This document shows positions 19,497 to 51,054 of a stretch of DNA of 64,000 nt, in pieces. The translations under genes were made by a program, and so were the position numbers. The stretch is from NCBI GenBank assembly GCA_038884755.1, contig JAWABJ010000001.1, forward strand, positions 636,953 to 700,952, written 5' to 3'. Source of the stretch: Candidatus Norongarragalinales archaeon (lineage in GTDB: Archaea > Micrarchaeota > Micrarchaeia > Norongarragalinales > Norongarragalinaceae). The notes beneath the pieces were generated by a model, which was not told where the DNA came from, ran no database searches, and saw only the letters and a list, made by a program, of their open reading frames with translations. Numbering within the stretch: the first letter of the stretch is position 1; each line of letters starts with the position of its first letter.

Positions 19497-19829
19497 ATGA
19501 TAGGCGAATCGAGGCAGCCCAGGATAGTTTCCATAGGCAGGCAGCAGAAAAGCTTGATGGACTACCGCGAAGCTGGTGAGTACGTGCCCTACCGCAGGCA
19601 GACGCCGGCGTTTTACGCCGAGGCGAAACAGCTTTTCACCGACAACGAAATAATACTGCTCGCAATTTGGCTCGTTGTCTCTCCTTCCGCGGCGTTGGCG
19701 TACTTGATTTGGATAAAATACGAGCACTTGAGGCTTTTGGCACTGCTGCTGTTTGCGGTCGGAATAATCCACGCAGCCTACCAGTGGCAAGGCTTTTACG
19801 GGTTCGTTAGGAACCTCGCCGGTTTTTGA
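19497..19829 (+). CDS. small integral membrane protein, hypothetical
   Basis: Two predicted TM helices; ORF only. Confidence 0.4.
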   Translation: MIGESRQPRIVSIGRQQKSLMDYREAGEYVPYRRQTPAFYAEAKQLFTDNEIILLAIWLVVSPSAALAYLIWIKYEHLRLLALLLFAVGIIHAAYQWQGFYGFVRNLAGF

Positions 19830-19876
19830 AACGCGAGCGTGGGGTTTAAAGAATTCGCGACACAATTCTTTACGGT

Positions 19877-20207
19877 GGGCCTATAGCTCAGCCTGGACAG
19901 AGCAACTGCCTTCTAAGTCAGGCTTTTCTTTTCACAAAAGAAAAGCCCGACGCGGTAAAAGAAAACTCGGTTTTTCTTTGGCGCGGCGCCAACCGCACCT
20001 TTCTTTTCGTGAAAAAGAAAGGGGCAAGGCAGCAGGAGGTCGGGGGTCCGAAAGGAGGAGAAACCAAGGTTTCTCCTCTCTACGCCTCTTCCTTTCGAGG
20101 AAAGAGAAAGGCGCGTTGCGCAAGAAAAAATAGTTTTTCTTTGGCGGCGCCCTCGCCTTTCTTTTTTCTAAAAAGAAAGGCAAGGCACGGAAATCCCCCT
20201 AGGCCCG
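19877..20207 (+). tRNA. tRNA-Arg (UCU) candidate with two long (~115 and ~140 nt) introns: after anticodon loop (19917-20031) and within T-loop (20051-20190)
   Basis: Exon 1 GGGCCTA TA GCTC AGCCTGGACA GAGC A ACTGC CTTCTAA (19877-19916); exon 2 GCAGG AGGTC GGGGG TCCG (20032-20050); exon 3 AAT CCCCC TAGGCCC G (20191-20207); acceptor 7/7 bp, T-stem GGGGG/CCCCC; both introns end in the same CCTTTCTTTT-N5-AAAAAGAAAGG-GCAAGGCA module. Position 27:43 is A:G, so the anticodon stem has one mismatch. Confidence 0.55.
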
Positions 20208-20262
20208 CTTTTTTGCTGAAGAAAACGCAAGAGTTTTTATCGTTAGGCTGGTTAAGTATGCG

Positions 20263-21009
20263 ATGATAAAACTCAACGTTTTCCCCTTGGATTTGGAGTA
20301 CGACGATTCCGAAAAAAAACTTTACTTCGAGGGAGTCGAACTTTCGCCGAACGTGCGCACTCTCGGCGAAATGTCGAGCGTGGTTTTAGACAAGGTTTTT
20401 TTCGAGAAAGCCGACAAGAAACGCATTCAGTACTACATGTTCAGGGAGATTGCGAAGAAAGGCGACGTCGAGCTTTTCAAAACCCCGCCTTTGGAATTGT
20501 CTTACGACATTACGGTGATTCCCACGCTCGATTTGGGGAGGGAGTTCAACAAAACCCTGGGGCATTACCACCCGAAAAGCCCGTTTGGAGCGCGTTATGC
20601 CGAGATTTACGAAGTGCTCGAGGGTGAAGGGCATTACTTGCTGCAACGCCTTGATGAAAAAACGGGAAACGTTGACGACGTCATGCTTGTGATAGCGAAG
20701 AAAGGCGACAAAGTGGTAGTGCCGAACGGCTATGGGCACATTTCCATAAACCCCAGTTCGAAAACACTGGTTTCCGCAAACATCACGGGCGTTTTCAAGA
20801 GCGAGTACGACCCTTACAGGCTCAAGGGCGGAGGGGCTTATTACGAATTGATAGACGATTCGCTTTCTCCCAACGAAAACTACGCGAACCTTCCGCTCAT
20901 TAAAACGGTCGACGCCATGGACTTGCCTTTGAACCAGCAGTTCGACGGCGACAACATTTACGCGCAGTTCGTCGAAAACCCGACGAAGTTCGACTTCCTG
21001 AAAAAGTGA
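20263..21009 (+). CDS. pgiA: glucose-6-phosphate isomerase, cupin type (archaeal cPGI)
   Basis: Cupin signature TLGHYHPKSPFGARYAEIYEVLEGEGHYLLQ (metal-binding His/Glu) and GYGHISINP. Confidence 0.7.
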   Translation: MIKLNVFPLDLEYDDSEKKLYFEGVELSPNVRTLGEMSSVVLDKVFFEKADKKRIQYYMFREIAKKGDVELFKTPPLELSYDITVIPTLDLGREFNKTLGHYHPKSPFGARYAEIYEVLEGEGHYLLQRLDEKTGNVDDVMLVIAKKGDKVVVPNGYGHISINPSSKTLVSANITGVFKSEYDPYRLKGGGAYYELIDDSLSPNENYANLPLIKTVDAMDLPLNQQFDGDNIYAQFVENPTKFDFLKK

Positions 21010-27490: not shown

Positions 27491-27631
27491 TGCTCCGCCC
27501 GGGATTCGAACCCGGGTTGCTGGCTGTCCATACGGCCTTTCTTTTTTCGTCGAGGTTTTTTCTTTCCGCGAAAGAAAAAAAAAAGGTCGTTTGAAAGGCC
27601 AGCGTCCTGGACCGGACTAGACGAGCGGAGC
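27491..27631 (-). tRNA. tRNA-Glu (UUC) with ~66-nt intron after the anticodon loop
   Basis: Acceptor GCTCCGC/GCGGAGC+A, D GTCT/GGAC, anticodon stem CTGGC/GCCAG loop CTTTCAA, T-arm CCGGG-TTCGAAT-CCCGG; intron contains T10-CTTTC-GCG-GAAAG-A6 hairpin. Confidence 0.8.
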
Positions 27632-29508: not shown

Positions 29509-29598
29509 GCCGGAGTAGCTCAGTTGGTTAGAGCGCTAGACTCATAAGCGCAACGCTGTGAAACCTAGAGGTCGGGTGTTCAATTCTCCCCTCCGGCA
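29509..29598 (+). tRNA. tRNA-Met or tRNA-Ile2 (CAU) elongator-type with ~16-nt intron after anticodon loop
   Basis: Acceptor GCCGGAG/CTCCGGC+A, D GCTC/GAGC, anticodon stem CTAGA/CCTAG (A31:C39 mismatch) loop CTCATAA, intron GCGCAACGCTGTGAAA, T-arm GGGTG-TTCAATT-CTCCC (one U:U). Confidence 0.65.
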
Positions 29599-43975: not shown

Positions 43976-44070
43976 GATTAATCCGAAATCTTCCTCTGCT
44001 TTTAAATCTTGAGAGAGTGGCTTTCCAGTGCTTCCAGTGAATTGCCTATGATTGTGCGTTCTAAAAGAGG
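43331..44070 (-). mobile_element. archaeal (bulge-helix-bulge type) intron in 23S at the I-CreI-like site (E. coli ~2593), carrying a LAGLIDADG ORF
   Basis: Splits AACGUCGCGA|GACAGUUCGG; intron termini CCUCUUUUAGAACGC...GCGUUCUAGAAGAGG are complementary (long terminal helix typical of archaeal rRNA introns); no group I core elements. Confidence 0.7.
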
Positions 44071-44191
44071 TCGCGACGTTCTGAACCCAACTAACGTAGG
44101 TCTTTAATGGATGAACAACCCAACCCTTGGTGGCTCCTGCACCACCAGGATGACCTGAGCCGATAGCGATGTACCAAACCGCGGTGTCGAT

Positions 44192-44393
44192 TTGTCCTTT
44201 GCAGAACAATCTTTCCCGCCCCCTACGCGTTGAGCGTCAGAGTTCAAACCGGTCACTAACATCTTTTGCGAGAGATTACCTAAACCTAACCAGCATGGAT
44301 GCCAGTGTCGGTTTAAACGAAGACTGATCGCTCAAAACACGGGGTTGAAAAAGAAAGTTCCATTCGCCTTTCAAATGAAAGAAAGGGGAAAAA
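44192..44393 (-). mobile_element. ~200-nt insertion in 23S between GAGAGUUCAU and AUCGACACCGCGG (E. coli ~2500 site); ORF-less, type undetermined
   Basis: Flanking exon sequences align to conserved domain V; insert lacks group I R/S elements; contains CCUUUC...GAAAGG hairpin. Confidence 0.5.
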
Positions 44394-44517
44394 ATGAACT
44401 CTCAACCGCGACGAGCCTGTTACCCCCGGGGTAGCTTGTCTGTCAGAATGAGCCCTCATTAAAAGGGCATCATTGTTCGTTAAGCCCTGCTTTCGCACCT
44501 GCGACCCATAAAACAGA

Positions 44518-44555
44518 TTTTTCTTTACTTGATTTTTCTTTCGTAAAGAAAAATC
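44518..44555. repeat. hairpin-repeat insertion in 23S: UUUUUCUUUACUUGAUUUUUCUUUCGUAAAGAAAAAUC
   Basis: Near-identical (35/38) to copy in 16S at 49958-49997. Confidence 0.7.
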
Positions 44556-44984
44556 ATTTGTTAAGATCACAGTCAATCCAGCATTTGTCTTTGACCCTCT
44601 ACAACGCATTTCTAACGCGTCTGAGCTGAATATTGGGCGCCTTTGTTATCTTTTCGAAGGCGTGCCGCCCCAGCCAAACCACCCACCTGCAGCTGTCTTT
44701 CTTTCGAAATGAGCAATGCAGTCGAAAAATAGCAGTGTCACACTTTCGCCTATCGCACTCCCGGAAGAGTGCGCTTGACGGCTCCTGCTTACGCTTTGAT
44801 TCTCCAACCGAATTACAACAACAGGCTGTGGTTAAGCTCCACGGGGTCTTCGTTTCCCTTTAGGATTCCTCGGCATGTTCACCGAGAAGTAGGTTCACCA
44901 GGTCCAAGGTAGGGACAGCAAGACAGTCGTTACGCCATTCATGCAAGCCGCCAATTAAGCGGCGAGGTACTACGCTACCTTAAG

Positions 44985-45709
44985 CAACTTTTCGTATGCA
45001 TTTTGCACTGAAAAGCTGGACTATATCTTCACCGTCTTAGGGTGTTCGGCGTATAGTCTCTGAGGATCCTGTCTTTGCGTCCAACTCTTGCATTATTTCA
45101 TCCAAAGTGCTCTTGCGTTGTTTTCCTTCCAAATTCATTCGGAAGGCCAAGCGCACGAGTTTTTTGAACGAGTCAAGGTCGGAATGCTCTTTTCTTTCTA
45201 ACGCTTCAACAATTTCCTTGAACAGAAGAAAGTCTTTCTCTTTCGAGACAAGCGGATACTTGTCGAAAAAAGGAATTACTTTCTCCGCCAACTGCCTTCG
45301 GTTGTCTACAACGAACTGCATTAATTCCGGTTGACCGTGTTTTTCCACGACCCTTCCGCAAGAAAGCCTGCTTCGGAATAAATCCAAAACCGCTTGTCCT
45401 TGCTTGTGTTGGGTTACGTGAAAAACCGGGTCTAAAACCAACCCGAATTTTGCAGTGTCTTCTTGTTTTAAAGACACGTTGAAACAACCTTCAGCGTCGG
45501 CGAATCCGCTCAAGAAAAAATCGGCGTTTCTTCCTTTCGTGAGTTTACTCAACCCAGCCATAGGCAACCACCTTTTTGGTTCTTTTAAAATTACAGTTTC
45601 CTGCTGATAGCATTCAACGTTTCAAGCTCTTTTCCTTACTCAGGGTCTTGAAACTCCCGCGTTCCAGCATACAGCCGAATTTAGCGACTCCCTTTAACTT
45701 GATTGCTCA
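44985..45709 (-). mobile_element. group I-like intron in 23S (E. coli ~1917 site) carrying LAGLIDADG ORF
   Basis: 5' exon ends ...GACUCU (U at -1) pairing with internal guide GGGAGUC (U:G at splice site); P-like AACGCGGGAG, Q-like UAUCAGCAGG, R-like CAGAGACUAUACG, S element AAGAUAUAGUCC (exact consensus), P9 hairpin, terminal G; ligated exons restore ..UAACUCUGACUCU|CUUAAGGUAGCG. Confidence 0.7.
45037..45567 (-). CDS. single-motif LAGLIDADG homing endonuclease (TTG/ATG start), encoded from P6 region through P7/P8 of the group I intron
   Basis: LSGFADAEGCF motif; 176 aa; R element encoded as ...SETIRR..., stop codon in P8 loop. Confidence 0.75.
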   Translation of the reverse strand: MPMAGLSKLTKGRNADFFLSGFADAEGCFNVSLKQEDTAKFGLVLDPVFHVTQHKQGQAVLDLFRSRLSCGRVVEKHGQPELMQFVVDNRRQLAEKVIPFFDKYPLVSKEKDFLLFKEIVEALERKEHSDLDSFKKLVRLAFRMNLEGKQRKSTLDEIMQELDAKTGSSETIRRTP

Positions 45710-46023
45710 AGAGTCAGAGTTACTCCCGCTCTTTGCCAGTCCTTTGCTCCCTTGAAAAGGAGTTTGAGATACTGGTAGTGAGCAGGCGTCAACCATCGTA
45801 CTCAACCTTTCGGTTTTGCGATGATTTGTGTTTTTGATAAACAGTCGCTGTCTCCTTGCCACTGCGACCTACAAACCCCCAATCGACAAAGTCTATGGAA
45901 GAATGTAGGCAGCCCTTCTTCCGAAGTTACGGGCCTAGATTGCCGAATTCCCTTACCATGGTTCTCCTGCCACGCCTTGGCTTGCTCTGCCAGGACCACC
46001 TTTCAGTAAAAAATTTCTTTGGG

Positions 46024-46063
46024 TTTTCTTTACTGAATTTTTCTTTTCCCAAAAGAAAAATTC
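46024..46063. repeat. hairpin-repeat insertion in 23S: UUUUCUUUACUGAAUUUUUCUUUUCCCAAAAGAAAAAUUC
   Basis: Shares UUUCUUUACU-N-AAUUUUUCUUU...AAAGAAAAAUU module with 44518 and 49958 copies. Confidence 0.65.
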
Positions 46064-47920
46064 TTGTACTGGTTCTGGGTACGGACACTCGAGATCACTC
46101 CCGCTCCATTTTCACGGACTCTAGGATTCAGCCCAACCCCCTTGCGGAGGCCATTCCCAGCTTCAACGAGTGCTCCTCATTACGAGACTTCCCCGTTGTA
46201 TTCAAGTTAACAACGATGCGCGTTGTGGGCCTATCCCTAAGCGTTTGGATGCGGGCTTGCGTTGCCGCACTTACTCAAGTGGTACGCGAATGTTAACGCG
46301 TTTCCCTTTCGACATCACTGTCGTTTAGTCTTAGGACCGACTTACTCTTGGTCGACTAACGTTGCCAAGAAACCCTTAGTCCTTTCGGCGTCCAGGATTC
46401 ACACCTGGAATAGTTGCTACTAGCACCAAGATCTTCATTGCAATCCGCTCCACAAGACCTCACGGCCTTGCTTCTGCGCGAACTGCACGCCCCTCTACTA
46501 AATCACGCTCAACAAAGCGTGTTCTGAAGTATCGGCGAACTGCTTAGTCCCGAGAGTTTACAACGCTCCAGTCCTTGATGGGTCCGCTGTTACGCGTTGT
46601 TTAAAGGATGGCAGCTTCTGTTCCTACCTCCCCACTGTCTGAGAACCGAAACGTCTTGAAGAACACTCAGCAGTTTCTTAGGGGCCTTAACTCCAGTAAG
46701 CGTCTTTACGCCCTCGCCGCACGCGCTTAACTCATGCGGCCAACTCCTGTCTTCTACAACGTCGTTAGCTTCGGAGTTTGATAGCAAAGTGAGGGCTTTC
46801 GCCCCCGTGCTTCGCAATCGGTAGCTCTACCTAACGACAATCTCCAACAGGGCTGAACTGCGGTTCACTTCGAAGGGAACCCGCTATCGCCAAGCTCGAA
46901 TGCACTTTCATCCCTAAACGCGAGTCACCCAAGAGGCTAGACCATCACTGGTTTCGGGCTTCCACCACCCTGAAGGGCGGCTTCACCCTGCTCACGCTTA
47001 GATCGCTTTGGCTTCGGGTCTCACGAGAGTGACTTGACGCCGGTTAAGACGTTCTCCCTCGCACCTTGCGGTGTTGCGGAGTTTTCGCTTTCGCTATGCA
47101 CAATGCTTGCCACTCTCGTGAACTCCTTGGCTCTTGCTTCAAGAAGTACGACACGACCCCGTGCCCTCTTCGGGCCTTTCGGGCCGAGTCTTCATGTCGC
47201 CTTACAATTTCAGGCACTTTTAACGCCGCTTTCGCGGTGCTTTTCAGTTTTCCCTCACGGTACTGAATTCGCTATCGGTCTTGAGTTGTATTTTAGGGTT
47301 GCAAGTTAATACTCGCGTTTTCACACAGCCAATCCAGGCTATGCTACTCTGGAATTCCTCCCATCCCCTTTCGGTTCGCTTACACGGCTTTCACGTTCTA
47401 AAGCGGCATTTTCCAATGCCCTTCAGCTCTCGATCGGGGATTAAAAGAAGGAACCCAAACTCCACATTTCTACTCTCTTTGCAGAGAGGATTCGGTTTGC
47501 CCTGATGCGCTTTCGTTCGCACTAATCACGCAATCCCTATTGGTTTCTCTTCCTCCGCTTACTAAGATATTTCAATTCAGCGGGTGTGCGCTCTTTCCAG
47601 AGCATTCGGGAACCTTGGGTTCAAAGCCTGCATGCGGCTACCCCAAGCTTTTCGCAGCTTGCCACGCCCTTCGTCGCCACTCAAGCCAAACCATCCACTG
47701 TAAGGCTTTGCAACAACTACTCCTCGATAAACCTGCACAGCTTCATGAAAATATGCACTCTTGCGAGTGCATTAAATCAGCACTTCGAATTCAAACGCCC
47801 GTGCAAGGGGTCTTGCTTTGAATTCTGTTTTCTTCGCCCGCAAACCGTTTTGAGGCGGTCAGCGGACACACGCATTTTCCTGTGATTTCCGCGCTCCGGT
47901 TTTTTCCGGCGGTTTTTCTT

Positions 47921-47977
47921 TTTTTGCTTTTCTTTCTTTACTTAATTTTTTCTTTCTTTCGCAAAAAGAAAGAAAGG
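47921..47977. repeat. TTTCTTTC...GAAAGAAA hairpin repeat copy in the 16S-23S spacer (UUUUUUCUUUCUUUCGCAAAAAGAAAGAAAGG)
   Basis: Perfect palindromic stem; member of family also at 44518-44555, 46024-46063, 49958-49997, 33777-33801, and inside tRNA introns at 19268-19326, 19917-20031, 20051-20190, 27541-27585. Confidence 0.7.
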
Positions 47978-47981
47978 TTAG

Positions 47982-48274: not shown

Positions 48275-48490
48275 CATGTAGTTCCACATGTCGCCATGCG
48301 GCATGGACTATATCATCATCTCAATTTCTTGAGCGTCTGCGTGTAGTCTCTGAGGGGTCAATCATTTTCATGACGACTTCCCTGCTGATAGACCCCACCT
48401 GAACCGTTGCCGGTTCAGGATACACGGGTTGTTCCAGCATACAGCAGATTTTGTCTGCATCCTCGCGGATGCAGGTCGCAACATAAGTTT
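48275..48490 (-). mobile_element. 216-nt ORF-less group I intron near 16S 3' end (between GUCGU and AACAAGGUAACC; E. coli ~1506 site)
   Basis: U at -1 with IGS GCGAC pairing exon GUCGU (U:G); P2 CUGCAUCC/GGAUGCAG, P5 CUGAACCG-GCAA-CGGUUCAG, Q-like UAUCAGCAGG, R CAGAGACUACACG, P8 CUCAAGAAAUUGAG, S GAUGAUAUAGUCC, P9 CCAUGCCGCAUGG, terminal G; core elements near-identical to the 23S L1917 intron. Confidence 0.7.
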
Positions 48491-49031
48491 ACGACTTAAC
48501 CCTCCTCATGAAGATCTAGCTCGAATGCGACCGAAGTCGCAGCCTCACTAAAACCTCACTTGGATGGCTTGACGGGCGGTGTGTGCAAGGAGCGGGGACA
48601 TATTCACCGCGCGATGATGACACGCGATTACTAGGGATTCCAACTTCATGGGGGCGAGTTTCAGCCCCCAATCTGTACTGGAGTAGGGTTTAGGTGATTG
48701 CCTCCGCCTTTCGGCGTCGGAACACATTGTCCCTACTATTGTATGCCACGTGTGGCCCAGCAGATTCAGGCCATACGGACCTAGCGTCGCCTTCTCCTTC
48801 CTCCCACTTAACGCGGGCAGTCTCCACAGAGTGCCCTCCGAATTGCTTCGAAGGTAGCAACTGTGGACGAAGATCTCGCTCGTTGCACGACTTAACGTGA
48901 CACCTCACGGCACGAGCTGGCGCTGGCCATGCAACACTTCTCGGCTTGTTGGCTAAGATCTTTAGTCTGAGCTTCATACTGCCGTCTCTGCTGGTGAGTT
49001 TCCCGGCGTTGAGTCCAATTGAACCGCAGCA

Positions 49032-49719
<688 letters not shown>

Positions 49720-49957
49720 TCCTTTAAGTTTCAATCTTGCGATCGTACTCCCCAAGCGGCAGACTAAACGTTTTCACTACGGCACTGCAGCAACGCGAAG
49801 TCGCTGCAACGCCAAGTCTGCATCATTTACTGCACAGGACTACTCGGGTATCTAATCCGATTCGCTACCCTGGCCTTCGTTCCTCACCGTCAGACGTGTT
49901 TTGTCCAAGCGCTTTCGCCACCGATGGTCCTCTAAGGATTACAGGATTGTAAGCACA

Positions 49958-49997
49958 GTTTTTCTTTACTCAATTTTTCTTTCGTAAAGAAAAATTG
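49958..49997. repeat. hairpin-repeat insertion in 16S (within the ~720 region): UUUUUCUUUACUCAAUUUUUCUUUCGUAAAGAAAAAUUG
   Basis: Interrupts conserved GGGGUGAAAUCCUGUAAUCC context; near-identical to 23S copy. Confidence 0.7.
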
Positions 49998-51054
49998 TTT
50001 TACTCCTCCCCCTAAAGTACCCTTGGACTCCCCCACTCTCAAGCTCGGTAGTATTCCCTGCACGCCCATCCGTTGAGCGGATGGATTTCACAGGAAACTT
50101 GCCAAGCCGGCTACGGACGCTTTAAGCTCAATATTCGTGGATACCACTAGTTCTACCTGTGTTACCGCGGCGGCTGGCACAGGATTTACCCAGAACTTAT
50201 TCCACCGGCTATTCAAGCCGGTTAAAAGCCGACCTTTCGATCGGCACTCGGACTACCCCCATCACGCTTTCGCGCATTGTGGAATTTTCGCGCCTGCTGC
50301 ATCCCGTAGGACTCGGGCCCTTGTCTCAGTGCCCGTCTCGGGGCTCCTACTCCCATAGCCCCTACTGATTATAGGTTTGGTGGGCCGTTACCTCACCAAC
50401 AGCCTAATCAGCCGCAGTGCCATCTTACAGCAAACTTGCTCCAATTCGCTTTTTTTTCAACCGCCAACCGTTCCAGGTACGGCGGCCTATGGCGTGTTAC
50501 CCGCACTTTCGCGCGGTTATTCGCCTCTGTAAGGTAGGTTCACTACGTGTTACTGAGCCGTTTGCCGGGATTACAAGTGTAATCCCCAAACTTGCATGGC
50601 TTAGTCGTAATCCGATAGCAGTATCCTCCAGCAGGATCAACTGGTGTTGTCCTAACACCCGATTCGGGTGTTAGGACGGAGATCGCAAGAACTAACTTAT
50701 CTTGCGGAATGAGCGTCTTGCATAGAGTTATTTGCTCTCTTCTTCCCCTGCGTCGAACCCAAATGAGAATCGCTTGCCATCAGAGATGGAAGAACATAAT
50801 TCTTTGTTTGAGTGCCCATGATCGCTGTAGTAGTAAAAATAGCAACGCCAGTCATGGATTCACGCAGAGGCGAAAAACGCGATAGCAAGGCGTTTCTACG
50901 CTCTCAGATAAAGTCTTCTATGGCTTGCCGGGAACTACAGCATTAGAAAAAACACTCTTTCCGAAGAAAGAATGCCTTTATTAAATCGTCGAAAGGAGTT
51001 TAAAAAGCTTTTGAATCAACCGCGGGATGTAGCGCTTTGCAAGCGAAACAAATA

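Follow-up and report, generated by a model that had tools for sequence, protein, structure and literature searches.

The 64-kb stretch of archaeal DNA analysed in this study (hereafter the window) comes from a member of the Norongarragalinales, an order within the DPANN phylum Micrarchaeota (PMC8561730). The locus at its positions 19877–20207, on the + strand, is very probably a functional tRNA-Arg(UCU) gene that is interrupted by two introns, and it is probably the only gene for this tRNA in the genome. Intron 1 (19916–20030, 115 nt) lies inside the anticodon loop at the canonical position 37/38, and intron 2 (20053–20193, 141 nt) occupies position 59/60, a non-canonical site in the T-loop. 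From the 5' end, exon 1 (19877–19915, tRNA positions 1–37) reads GGGCCTA TA GCTC AGCCTGGACA GAGC A ACTGC CTTCTA and specifies the 5' strand of the acceptor stem, the D arm and the 5' strand of the anticodon stem, followed by the loop sequence CUUCUA that holds the anticodon UCU. Exon 2 (20031–20052, positions 38–59), with the sequence A GCAGG AGGTC GGGGG TCCGAA, contributes A38, the 3' strand of the anticodon stem, the variable loop AGGUC, the 5' strand of the T stem and the T-loop sequence UCCGAA. Exon 3 (20194–20207, positions 60–73), with the sequence T CCCCC TAGGCCC G, completes the molecule with U60, the 3' strands of the T and acceptor stems and the discriminator G, the CCA not being encoded. 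When both introns are removed the exons form a 75-nt cloverleaf, with standard stems of 7/4/5/5 pairs and a 7-nt anticodon loop that contains U33 and the triplet UCU, and ARAGORN calls this molecule tRNA-Arg(tct), as it does for all of the orthologues once they are spliced. An earlier note on this DNA had proposed a tRNA-Arg(UCU) gene split by two long introns of about 115–140 nt, and both proposals are borne out by the conserved, compensating cloverleaf and by orthologues that lack one or the other intron. Its placement of the second intron in the T-loop was right, and can now be given precisely as 59/60, but the first intron does not follow the anticodon loop as was thought.

Unspliced, the locus yields no tRNA with ARAGORN, with or without intron mode (introns up to 300 nt), and no Rfam match at the gathering threshold; at E <= 10 there is a 15.9-bit partial tRNA match, accompanied by noise (miRNA, leaders, snoRNA). 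Two other ways of reading the locus were considered and rejected. It is not a split or permuted tRNA gene, since a single strand carries all three exons in collinear order over 331 nt. Nor do the overlapping open reading frames of 51–85 aa suggest a protein-coding sequence, since conservation is seen only in the tRNA exons and intron length ranges from 0 to 141 nt among orthologues.

Comparison with related loci (referred to here by L numbers) allowed the exon boundaries to be fixed. A Micrarchaeota metagenome-assembled genome (MAG), L001, gave the only match in an exact exon-2 scan of species-representative genomes, and 11 further distinct orthologous genes, found by synteny, a metagenome scan and look-ups of homologues of the neighbouring glucose-6-phosphate isomerase (GPI) gene, came from independent assemblies of metagenomes and MAGs. 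The gene order is kept, the tRNA gene standing between genes for a small membrane protein and a cupin-type GPI. Counts of intron presence cover 12 distinct genes, that of the window included. Intron 1 is present in 11 of these; L018 lacks it, and there the sequence CTTCTAAGCAGG is contiguous. In the window alone, splicing at 38/39 or 39/40 would give the same product as splicing at 37/38, but these alternative registers are ruled out by L001, where the first intron base is T, so that 37/38 is the sole possible junction. Intron 2 is found in five of the 12 genes, with lengths of 35–141 nt (93 nt in L017, 38 nt in L018, 37 nt in L012 and 35 nt in L013), always at the same 59/60 phosphodiester. 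The seven orthologues without it read GGGGG-TCCGAAT-CCCCC, or have the variants TCCAAAT or TTCGAAT, and their contiguous T-arm is the exact product of cutting the window sequence after 20052 and before 20194.

The exons are far better conserved than their surroundings. Identity to the window is 89–99% in the exons, 47–72% in the 80 nt upstream, 48–69% in the 50 nt downstream and 66–79% in the GPI DNA, and exon 1 is identical or nearly so across 12 orthologues. Among eight distinct sequences, 96.4% of the cloverleaf cells are paired, against 23–54% when the partners are slid by one to three columns as a control, and there are compensatory double changes at three pairs (6:67, U-A/C-G; 49:65, G-C/U-A; 50:64, G-C/U-A). 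Conserved exons, compensatory pairs and drifted flanks together do not fit a decaying pseudogene.

The structure around intron 2 provides further support for splicing. A strict bulge-helix-bulge (BHB) motif, of the hBHBh' type, has a 4-bp central helix and two 3-nt bulges, and is cut two nucleotides 3' of each helix strand. In the window, the T stem is followed by a 4-bp helix between UCCG (20047–20050) and CGGA (20188–20191), with the single-stranded 3-nt segments AA|A (20051–20053) and AA|U (20192–20194), and this BHB-like motif is seen in the unconstrained minimum-energy fold, whether the T-arm is folded by itself or within the whole precursor. The layout is shared by all five genes that have intron 2: T-loop nt 54–57 pair with intron positions −6 to −3; nt 58 and 59 together with the first intron base make up one 3-nt single-stranded segment; and a 3-nt bulge against the T stem is made up of U60 and the last two intron bases. 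Helix and T-loop covary, the pairing being UCCG/CGGA in the window, UUCG/CGAA in L017 and UCCA/UGGA in L012 and L013; in L018 it is UCCG/CGAA, with one mismatch.

It could be argued that a 141-nt repeat inserted in the T-loop has inactivated the gene, leaving a pseudogene or relic, and that decoding is carried out by another gene. Seven of the 12 orthologues do lack intron 2, among them those whose GPI gene is most similar, but introns with covarying helices interrupt this phosphodiester in four other lineages. That the insertion is built of sequences found elsewhere as non-intronic trailer DNA, and includes a T6 run identical to the presumed terminator of the gene, would also suit a relic, yet a perfect 4-bp helix and two 3-nt segments mark its borders, and their register is exactly the one needed to restore the orthologous T-loop UCCGAAU. 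The gene is missed by standard tRNA finders, as a relic might be, but its exons are 99% identical to those of orthologues and show no degenerative changes, while neutral flanks have fallen to about 50%. A separate, intact tRNA-Arg(UCU) gene had been named in the earlier note as the finding that would speak for a relic; within the 64-kb window, where ARAGORN, Rfam and sequence comparison were applied, no second such gene was found. Overall, we consider an inactivated gene improbable.

The splice motif of intron 1, which has a three-hairpin architecture, is similar in outline. In the window, tRNA nt 32–34 pair with AAG at 20026–20028, with GC|A as the 3' bulge and UA|A as the 5' splice site. The pairing of nt 32–34 with intron positions −3 to −5 occurs in all orthologues carrying intron 1, and in L011 and L013 C35 is paired as well, so that all four pairs are present there. 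The exon side is invariant (CUUC), with partner variants CAAG, AAAG, GAGG, GAAG and UGAG. The 3' bulge is always 3 nt, and a hairpin always begins at intron nt 2 (19917 in the window), directly after the 5' splice site, with compensatory changes in the outer stem of this 5' hairpin.

In both introns of the window a 3-nt linker holds the 5' splice site and leads from the helix to a local hairpin beginning at intron nt 2, in place of a helix made with the intron's far end; the site lies in a multiloop and not in a closed bulge. At intron 2, the 3' bulge (AAU) is closed, with 3 nt beside the T stem, and the 5' segment AAA opens into the multiloop. The geometry is of the relaxed hBH/BHL kind and not the strict hBHBh' type. 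Relaxed motifs are cut by the epsilon2 and (alpha-beta)2 endonucleases (PMC3239211). Of the tRNA genes of Ca. Micrarchaeum (ARMAN-2), 56% are disrupted, introns at 59/60 included, and the epsilon2 endonuclease of this organism cuts a relaxed 59/60 motif in vitro (PMC3239211). By analogy within the phylum, the splicing endonuclease of the window's archaeon would be expected to be of the broad-specificity epsilon2 type. Positions 37/38 and 59/60 are structurally equivalent, as in each case a 5-bp stem carries a 7-nt loop and the site comes after nt 6 of that loop, and so the same intron body could be used at either site once the four nucleotides before its last two match the loop.

Transcription, splicing and the type of enzyme are predictions here. 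A TATA-like box, TTTAAAGA (19845–19852, + strand), read from the sequence 32 nt 5' of tRNA position 1, is presumably an archaeal promoter; similar boxes are found upstream in L002 (33 nt from G1), L004 and L005. A T6 run (20209–20214, + strand) directly 3' of the gene, after the discriminator, is a probable archaeal oligo-T terminator. Transcription from the box some 30 nt upstream would give a precursor of about 335 nt with two protein-spliced BHB introns, of 115 nt at 37/38 and 141 nt at 59/60. The endonuclease would cut two nucleotides 3' of each strand of the 4-bp helix formed by loop nt 1–4 and the 3' end of the intron, an RtcB-type ligase would join the three exons into the 75-nt tRNA, and CCA would be added afterwards.

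Several features weigh against a functional, spliced gene. An endonuclease of strict specificity would not cut 5' splice sites of this form. The central helix of intron 1 in the window has only three Watson–Crick pairs plus a C.C mismatch, and the anticodon stem meets competition in the minimum-energy fold from an alternative 7-bp helix, CUGCCUU/AAGGCAG. There are T5 and T6 runs inside intron 2, at 20134 and 20162, and a T5 run inside intron 1, at 19971, that could act as premature archaeal terminators, the gene's own presumed terminator also being T6; T5 runs occur as well in the conserved introns of relatives. Finally, position 55 of the mature tRNA would be C and not the near-universal U, and there would be an A27.G43 mismatch; these two departures are common to most orthologues. 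The T-loop is UCCGAAU or UCCAAAU, with C at the pseudouridine-55 site, in the window, L001, L002, L004, L005, L011–L013, L015 and L018, and the canonical UUCGAAU is found only in L006 and L017; the tRNA-Lys and tRNA-Glu genes of the window have TTCGAAT. The partner strand of the intron 2 helix changes with base 55, from CGGA or UGGA to CGAA.

Introns of other classes were also considered. Group I and group II self-splicing introns were rejected, with no Rfam match of that kind in 19700–20400 at E <= 10, and so was a box C/D sRNA within the introns, as 19877–20207 has no C box (RUGAUGA) and no D box (CUGA), and its Rfam snoRNA matches are below threshold. The box C/D introns of tRNA-Trp(CCA) are comparable in being long (>60 nt), in lying at 37/38 and in being conserved above their flanks (80–89% versus about 50% in the present case), but the introns described here lack C/D boxes and match no Rfam family above noise.

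This conservation is a feature of the long type of intron 1. The window copy (19916–20030) is 80–81% identical to those of L006 (1097–1206) and L017 (609–716), with flanks at about 50%, and long-type introns are in general 80–89% identical between lineages, compared with about 72% for GPI DNA and about 50% for intergenic flanks. This points to either selection or constraint on the intron sequence, or a recent lateral exchange of the intron together with its tRNA gene. Close relatives can differ within intron 1, as is seen when L004 (2752–2948), L015 (541–737) and L002 (2817–2949) are compared. Inside the L004 intron the short-type 3' junction, AAAGAG|AGCAGG, occurs as an internal copy, and the next 58 nt or so end in a second AGCAGG; L015 has AATAGTTTTCTTTGGCGGC at the place of this internal copy. 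Over a short timescale, recombination or rebuilding is at work on the alleles of intron 1.

The two introns of the window are related to one another. Local alignment of intron 1 (nt 7–115) with intron 2 (nt 33–134) scores 59, a value reached by none of 1000 dinucleotide shuffles (20.2 +/- 3.3), and 37 is the best score of intron 1 with 141-nt tiles from elsewhere in the window. Each intron has one copy of the 14-mer GTTTTTCTTTGGCG, which is found nowhere else in the 64 kb, and a repeat search also recovers the hairpin modules, so the shared segments described in the earlier note are real. A five-way alignment of introns is collinear, with the three-hairpin layout throughout.

By its sequence matches, intron 2 is a mosaic of a 45-nt hairpin unit and a near full-length copy of intron-1-type sequence. 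The first of these, hairpin A (20054–20100, + strand, within the first 48 nt or so of the intron), consists of GGAGGAGAAACC-AA-GGTTTCTCCTC followed by CTCTACGCCTCTTCCTTT, and is homologous to tRNA 3' trailers. A second copy (1868–1913, + strand) begins 3 nt after the 3' end of tRNA-Lys(UUU); the 45-nt alignment between them scores 51, and no shuffle comes up to this (16.2 +/- 2.7). The hairpin at the start of intron 2 had been equated with the one that follows tRNA-Lys, and a resemblance is plain, but not identity, as a search of the window allowing up to three mismatches returned only the intron 2 hairpin itself. A third copy follows the tRNA-Arg gene of L006 by 5 nt (score 39, shuffles 19.2 +/- 2.6, none as high), and no copies beyond these three were found with an nhmmer profile in the sequences gathered for the analysis. 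The remainder of intron 2 is the intron-1-type core (20088–20193, + strand; intron nt 36–141), with three hairpins ending in GGCAAGGCA and then CGGAAA. Its best match is the intron 1 allele of L015, with 88 of 107 positions identical (82%) and a score of 110, against 21.2 +/- 3.6 for shuffles. The paralogy of the two introns suggested in the earlier note is therefore well founded, but with the best match of intron 2 being the L015 allele, and related introns in other genes and at other sites, a transposing intron family describes it better than a simple, one-off duplication within one gene.

Given that the sequence derives from a MAG, intron 2 could be thought of as an assembly artefact, a chimeric join of the intron-1 alleles of co-occurring strains at repetitive hairpins. 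The region is rich in near-identical polypyrimidine/polypurine hairpins, and the core of intron 2 is closest to an allele of another lineage (the L015 type), but their identity is 82% and not close to 100%. Moreover, the helix strand CGGA fits the window's own T-loop, UCCG, whereas L015 has UCCA, and L017, an independent assembly (of a JGI sample), has the same design with a different type of intron 1 at 59/60. So precise a loss of exon sequence would not be expected of a chimera. We regard an artefact as very unlikely, and as less likely still than an inactivated gene.

How a copy of an intron-1-type sequence came to lie at 59/60 can be approached through the relatives. One possible, if not the likelier, route, which concerns the origin of intron 2 and not the function of the gene, is the fusion of tandem gene copies: copy 1, with a type-A intron 1, would have lost its 3' end, the hairpin-A trailer and a decayed copy 2, with a type-B intron 1, would have become the 59/60 intron, and copy 2 would have supplied exon 3. 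What favours such a fusion is the layout of L006, which is that expected of the precursor: an intact type-A gene, 5 nt, hairpin A, a copy of an L011-type intron 1, and then GCAGG. The trailer (L006 1243–1420, + strand) scores 61 against the L011-type intron 1 (shuffles 17.8 +/- 2.6), and the stretch looks like what is left of a second copy of the gene. Hairpin A of the window likewise follows T-loop position 59 directly, and the intron-1-type copy comes next, in the same order. However, no remnant of a second-copy exon 1 or exon 2 is detectable in intron 2 of the window, and several independent internal deletions would be required. The short, unrelated 59/60 introns of L012, L013 and L018 indicate that the site was already intronic without a tandem copy, and in L017, where hairpin A is missing, the intron-1-type copy stands at the very start of intron 2. 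These short introns, and the L017 case, speak for the alternative, the copying of an intron-1-type element into a pre-existing short 59/60 intron. Either route, as an event at the level of DNA, would fit the data.

Members of the same intron family are found at other sites. The start of intron 2 in L017 is 90% identical over 50 columns to the short (L002-type) intron 1, a better match than to the intron 1 of its own gene. In L006, the tRNA-Pro(CGG) gene (429–579, − strand) has a 76-nt intron at 37/38. Its 4-bp helix, UUCG/CGAA, is perfect, and over 44 nt the intron shares 84% identity with the L002-type intron 1 (E = 1.7e-8 in a local database); where other loci carry tRNA-Pro(CGG), ARAGORN reported the gene without an intron. 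From these similarities we infer a family of introns of about 50–120 nt, with polypyrimidine/polypurine hairpins, that would have moved between sites and genes at the DNA level. Likeness across sites and genes reads as the signature of tRNA intron transposition as described in the Thermoproteales.

Other stable-RNA genes of the window have features of a similar style. The contents of the window are archaeal, with a 16S–tRNA(Ala)–23S operon, an archaeal RNase P RNA and six tRNA genes found with standard tools, and introns occur in three of the seven tRNA genes (Arg, Glu(UUC) and Met(CAT)). The tRNA-Glu(UUC) gene (27491–27631, − strand) has a 66-nt intron at 37/38 with a polypyrimidine/polypurine hairpin from intron nt 2; as a member of the family it was rejected, because its alignment score of 27–28 is within background. 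That of tRNA-Met(CAT) (29509–29598, + strand) is 16 nt long, and without intron mode ARAGORN miscalls the gene as Glu(ctc). Directly after the tRNA-Ala of the rRNA operon, its trailer (47900–47980, − strand) has a long polypyrimidine/polypurine hairpin, CCTTTCTTTCTTTTTGCGAAAGAAAGAAAAAA. Such hairpins seem to be general in this genome where stable-RNA genes are concerned, in spacers as well as in trailers and introns.

The rRNA genes are enlarged. The 23S match (44036–47722, − strand) takes up 3687 nt for a model of 2987 nt, and the 16S match (48443–50647, − strand) 2205 nt for a model of 1478 nt, each with some 700 nt of insertions. The only group I intron match of the window (48284–48500, − strand; 51.8 bits, gathering threshold 50) overlaps the 3' end of the 16S match. 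One 66-nt insertion in the 23S rRNA (46001–46066, − strand) lies in a hairpin loop that has 2 nt in the archaeal large-subunit model (position ~1753). Among the non-self matches of intron 1 in the window it ranks first, with a score of 37, and it has hallmarks of the tRNA intron family, with a hairpin, TTTTTCTTTT-GGG-AAAAGAAAAA, that begins at the second inserted base and is followed by AAAGAAAAC. By eye, a 4-bp helix, AGUA/UACU, with flanking single-stranded segments is possible. A mini-intron belonging to the family is one possibility for this insertion, an expansion segment another.

Much of the background to this gene has been documented in other archaea, including tRNA genes with several introns, 59/60 introns in Micrarchaeota, relaxed motifs with endonucleases of broad specificity, paralogous (transposed) introns and the gain of introns at the population level (PMC3239211, PMC4033280, PMC4090602, PMC3293823). 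A close parallel is ARMAN-2, of the same phylum, where pre-tRNA-Cys(GCA) has an intron at 59/60 and pre-tRNA-Pro(GGG) has introns at 53/54 and 59/60, the cutting being done by the epsilon2 splicing endonuclease (Fujishima et al. 2011, PMC3239211). It shares with the present gene the 59/60 site, the relaxed bulge-helix motif and more than one intron per gene (PMC3239211), but the ARMAN-2 introns in the assayed substrates are of 13 and 25 nt, compared with 115 and 141 nt here, and the present gene, from the order Norongarragalinales, combines one canonical and one T-loop intron that are paralogous. With the transposition described in the Thermoproteales it has in common a gain inferred at the DNA level, a splice motif re-formed at each site, and several introns in a gene (up to three in that group). 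It differs in belonging to the DPANN and not the Thermoproteota, in having a copy within the same gene at an equivalent stem-loop position, in the much greater length of the copies, and in the availability of orthologous before-and-after loci for comparison. As in the system where intron gain has been followed at the population level, a second intron is present or absent in one tRNA gene, and partial copies of tRNA genes lie nearby, but no recombinase-encoding element is seen at the locus, and what has been gained are hairpin modules of 45–140 nt and not a 1.8-kb element.

What is new is the instance: an unannotated tRNA-Arg(UCU) gene of the Norongarragalinales, with a 141-nt T-loop intron and copying within the gene between equivalent loop positions. 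Introns go unmentioned in the literature on this order, as far as it was checked. A review in 2014 quoted a range of 11–129 nt for archaeal tRNA introns (PMC4090602), which the T-loop intron exceeds. Also new is a set of orthologous loci that captures empty, short, long and trailer-borne intron states. As a series it is unusually clean, including a gene with no intron 1, genes with no intron 2, genes with a short intron 2, and one with a long intron 2 that contains a copy of an intron-1 allele, with further copies in a neighbouring tRNA-Pro gene and in a trailer. Reviews in 2014 called the mechanism of intron transposition unknown (PMC4033280, PMC4090602), and the series bears on the open question of how protein-spliced introns of archaea are gained and move. 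The equivalence of 37/38 and 59/60 offers a simple reason why a canonical intron could be re-used in the T-loop after a change of about four nucleotides. There is also a practical side, because the gene escapes both ARAGORN and the default thresholds of Rfam/Infernal, so that genomes of this clade will appear to be without tRNA-Arg(UCU), and tRNA counts enter MAG quality standards.

It could tentatively be speculated, though we would not call it likely, that the hairpin intron family is actively spreading in the Norongarragalinales between equivalent stem-loop sites, together with the trailer-associated hairpin unit. The sites would be 37/38 and 59/60 of tRNA-Arg, 37/38 of tRNA-Pro and tRNA 3' trailers, and possibly the hairpin loop of 23S rRNA. 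If true, this order would be a second, independent lineage, besides the Thermoproteales, with ongoing transposition of archaeal introns. Its empty sites, filled sites and putative intermediates, such as the trailer copy of L006, would then allow the mechanism to be worked out, for which tandem-copy fusion, microhomology-mediated copying and an RNA-mediated route are the candidates.

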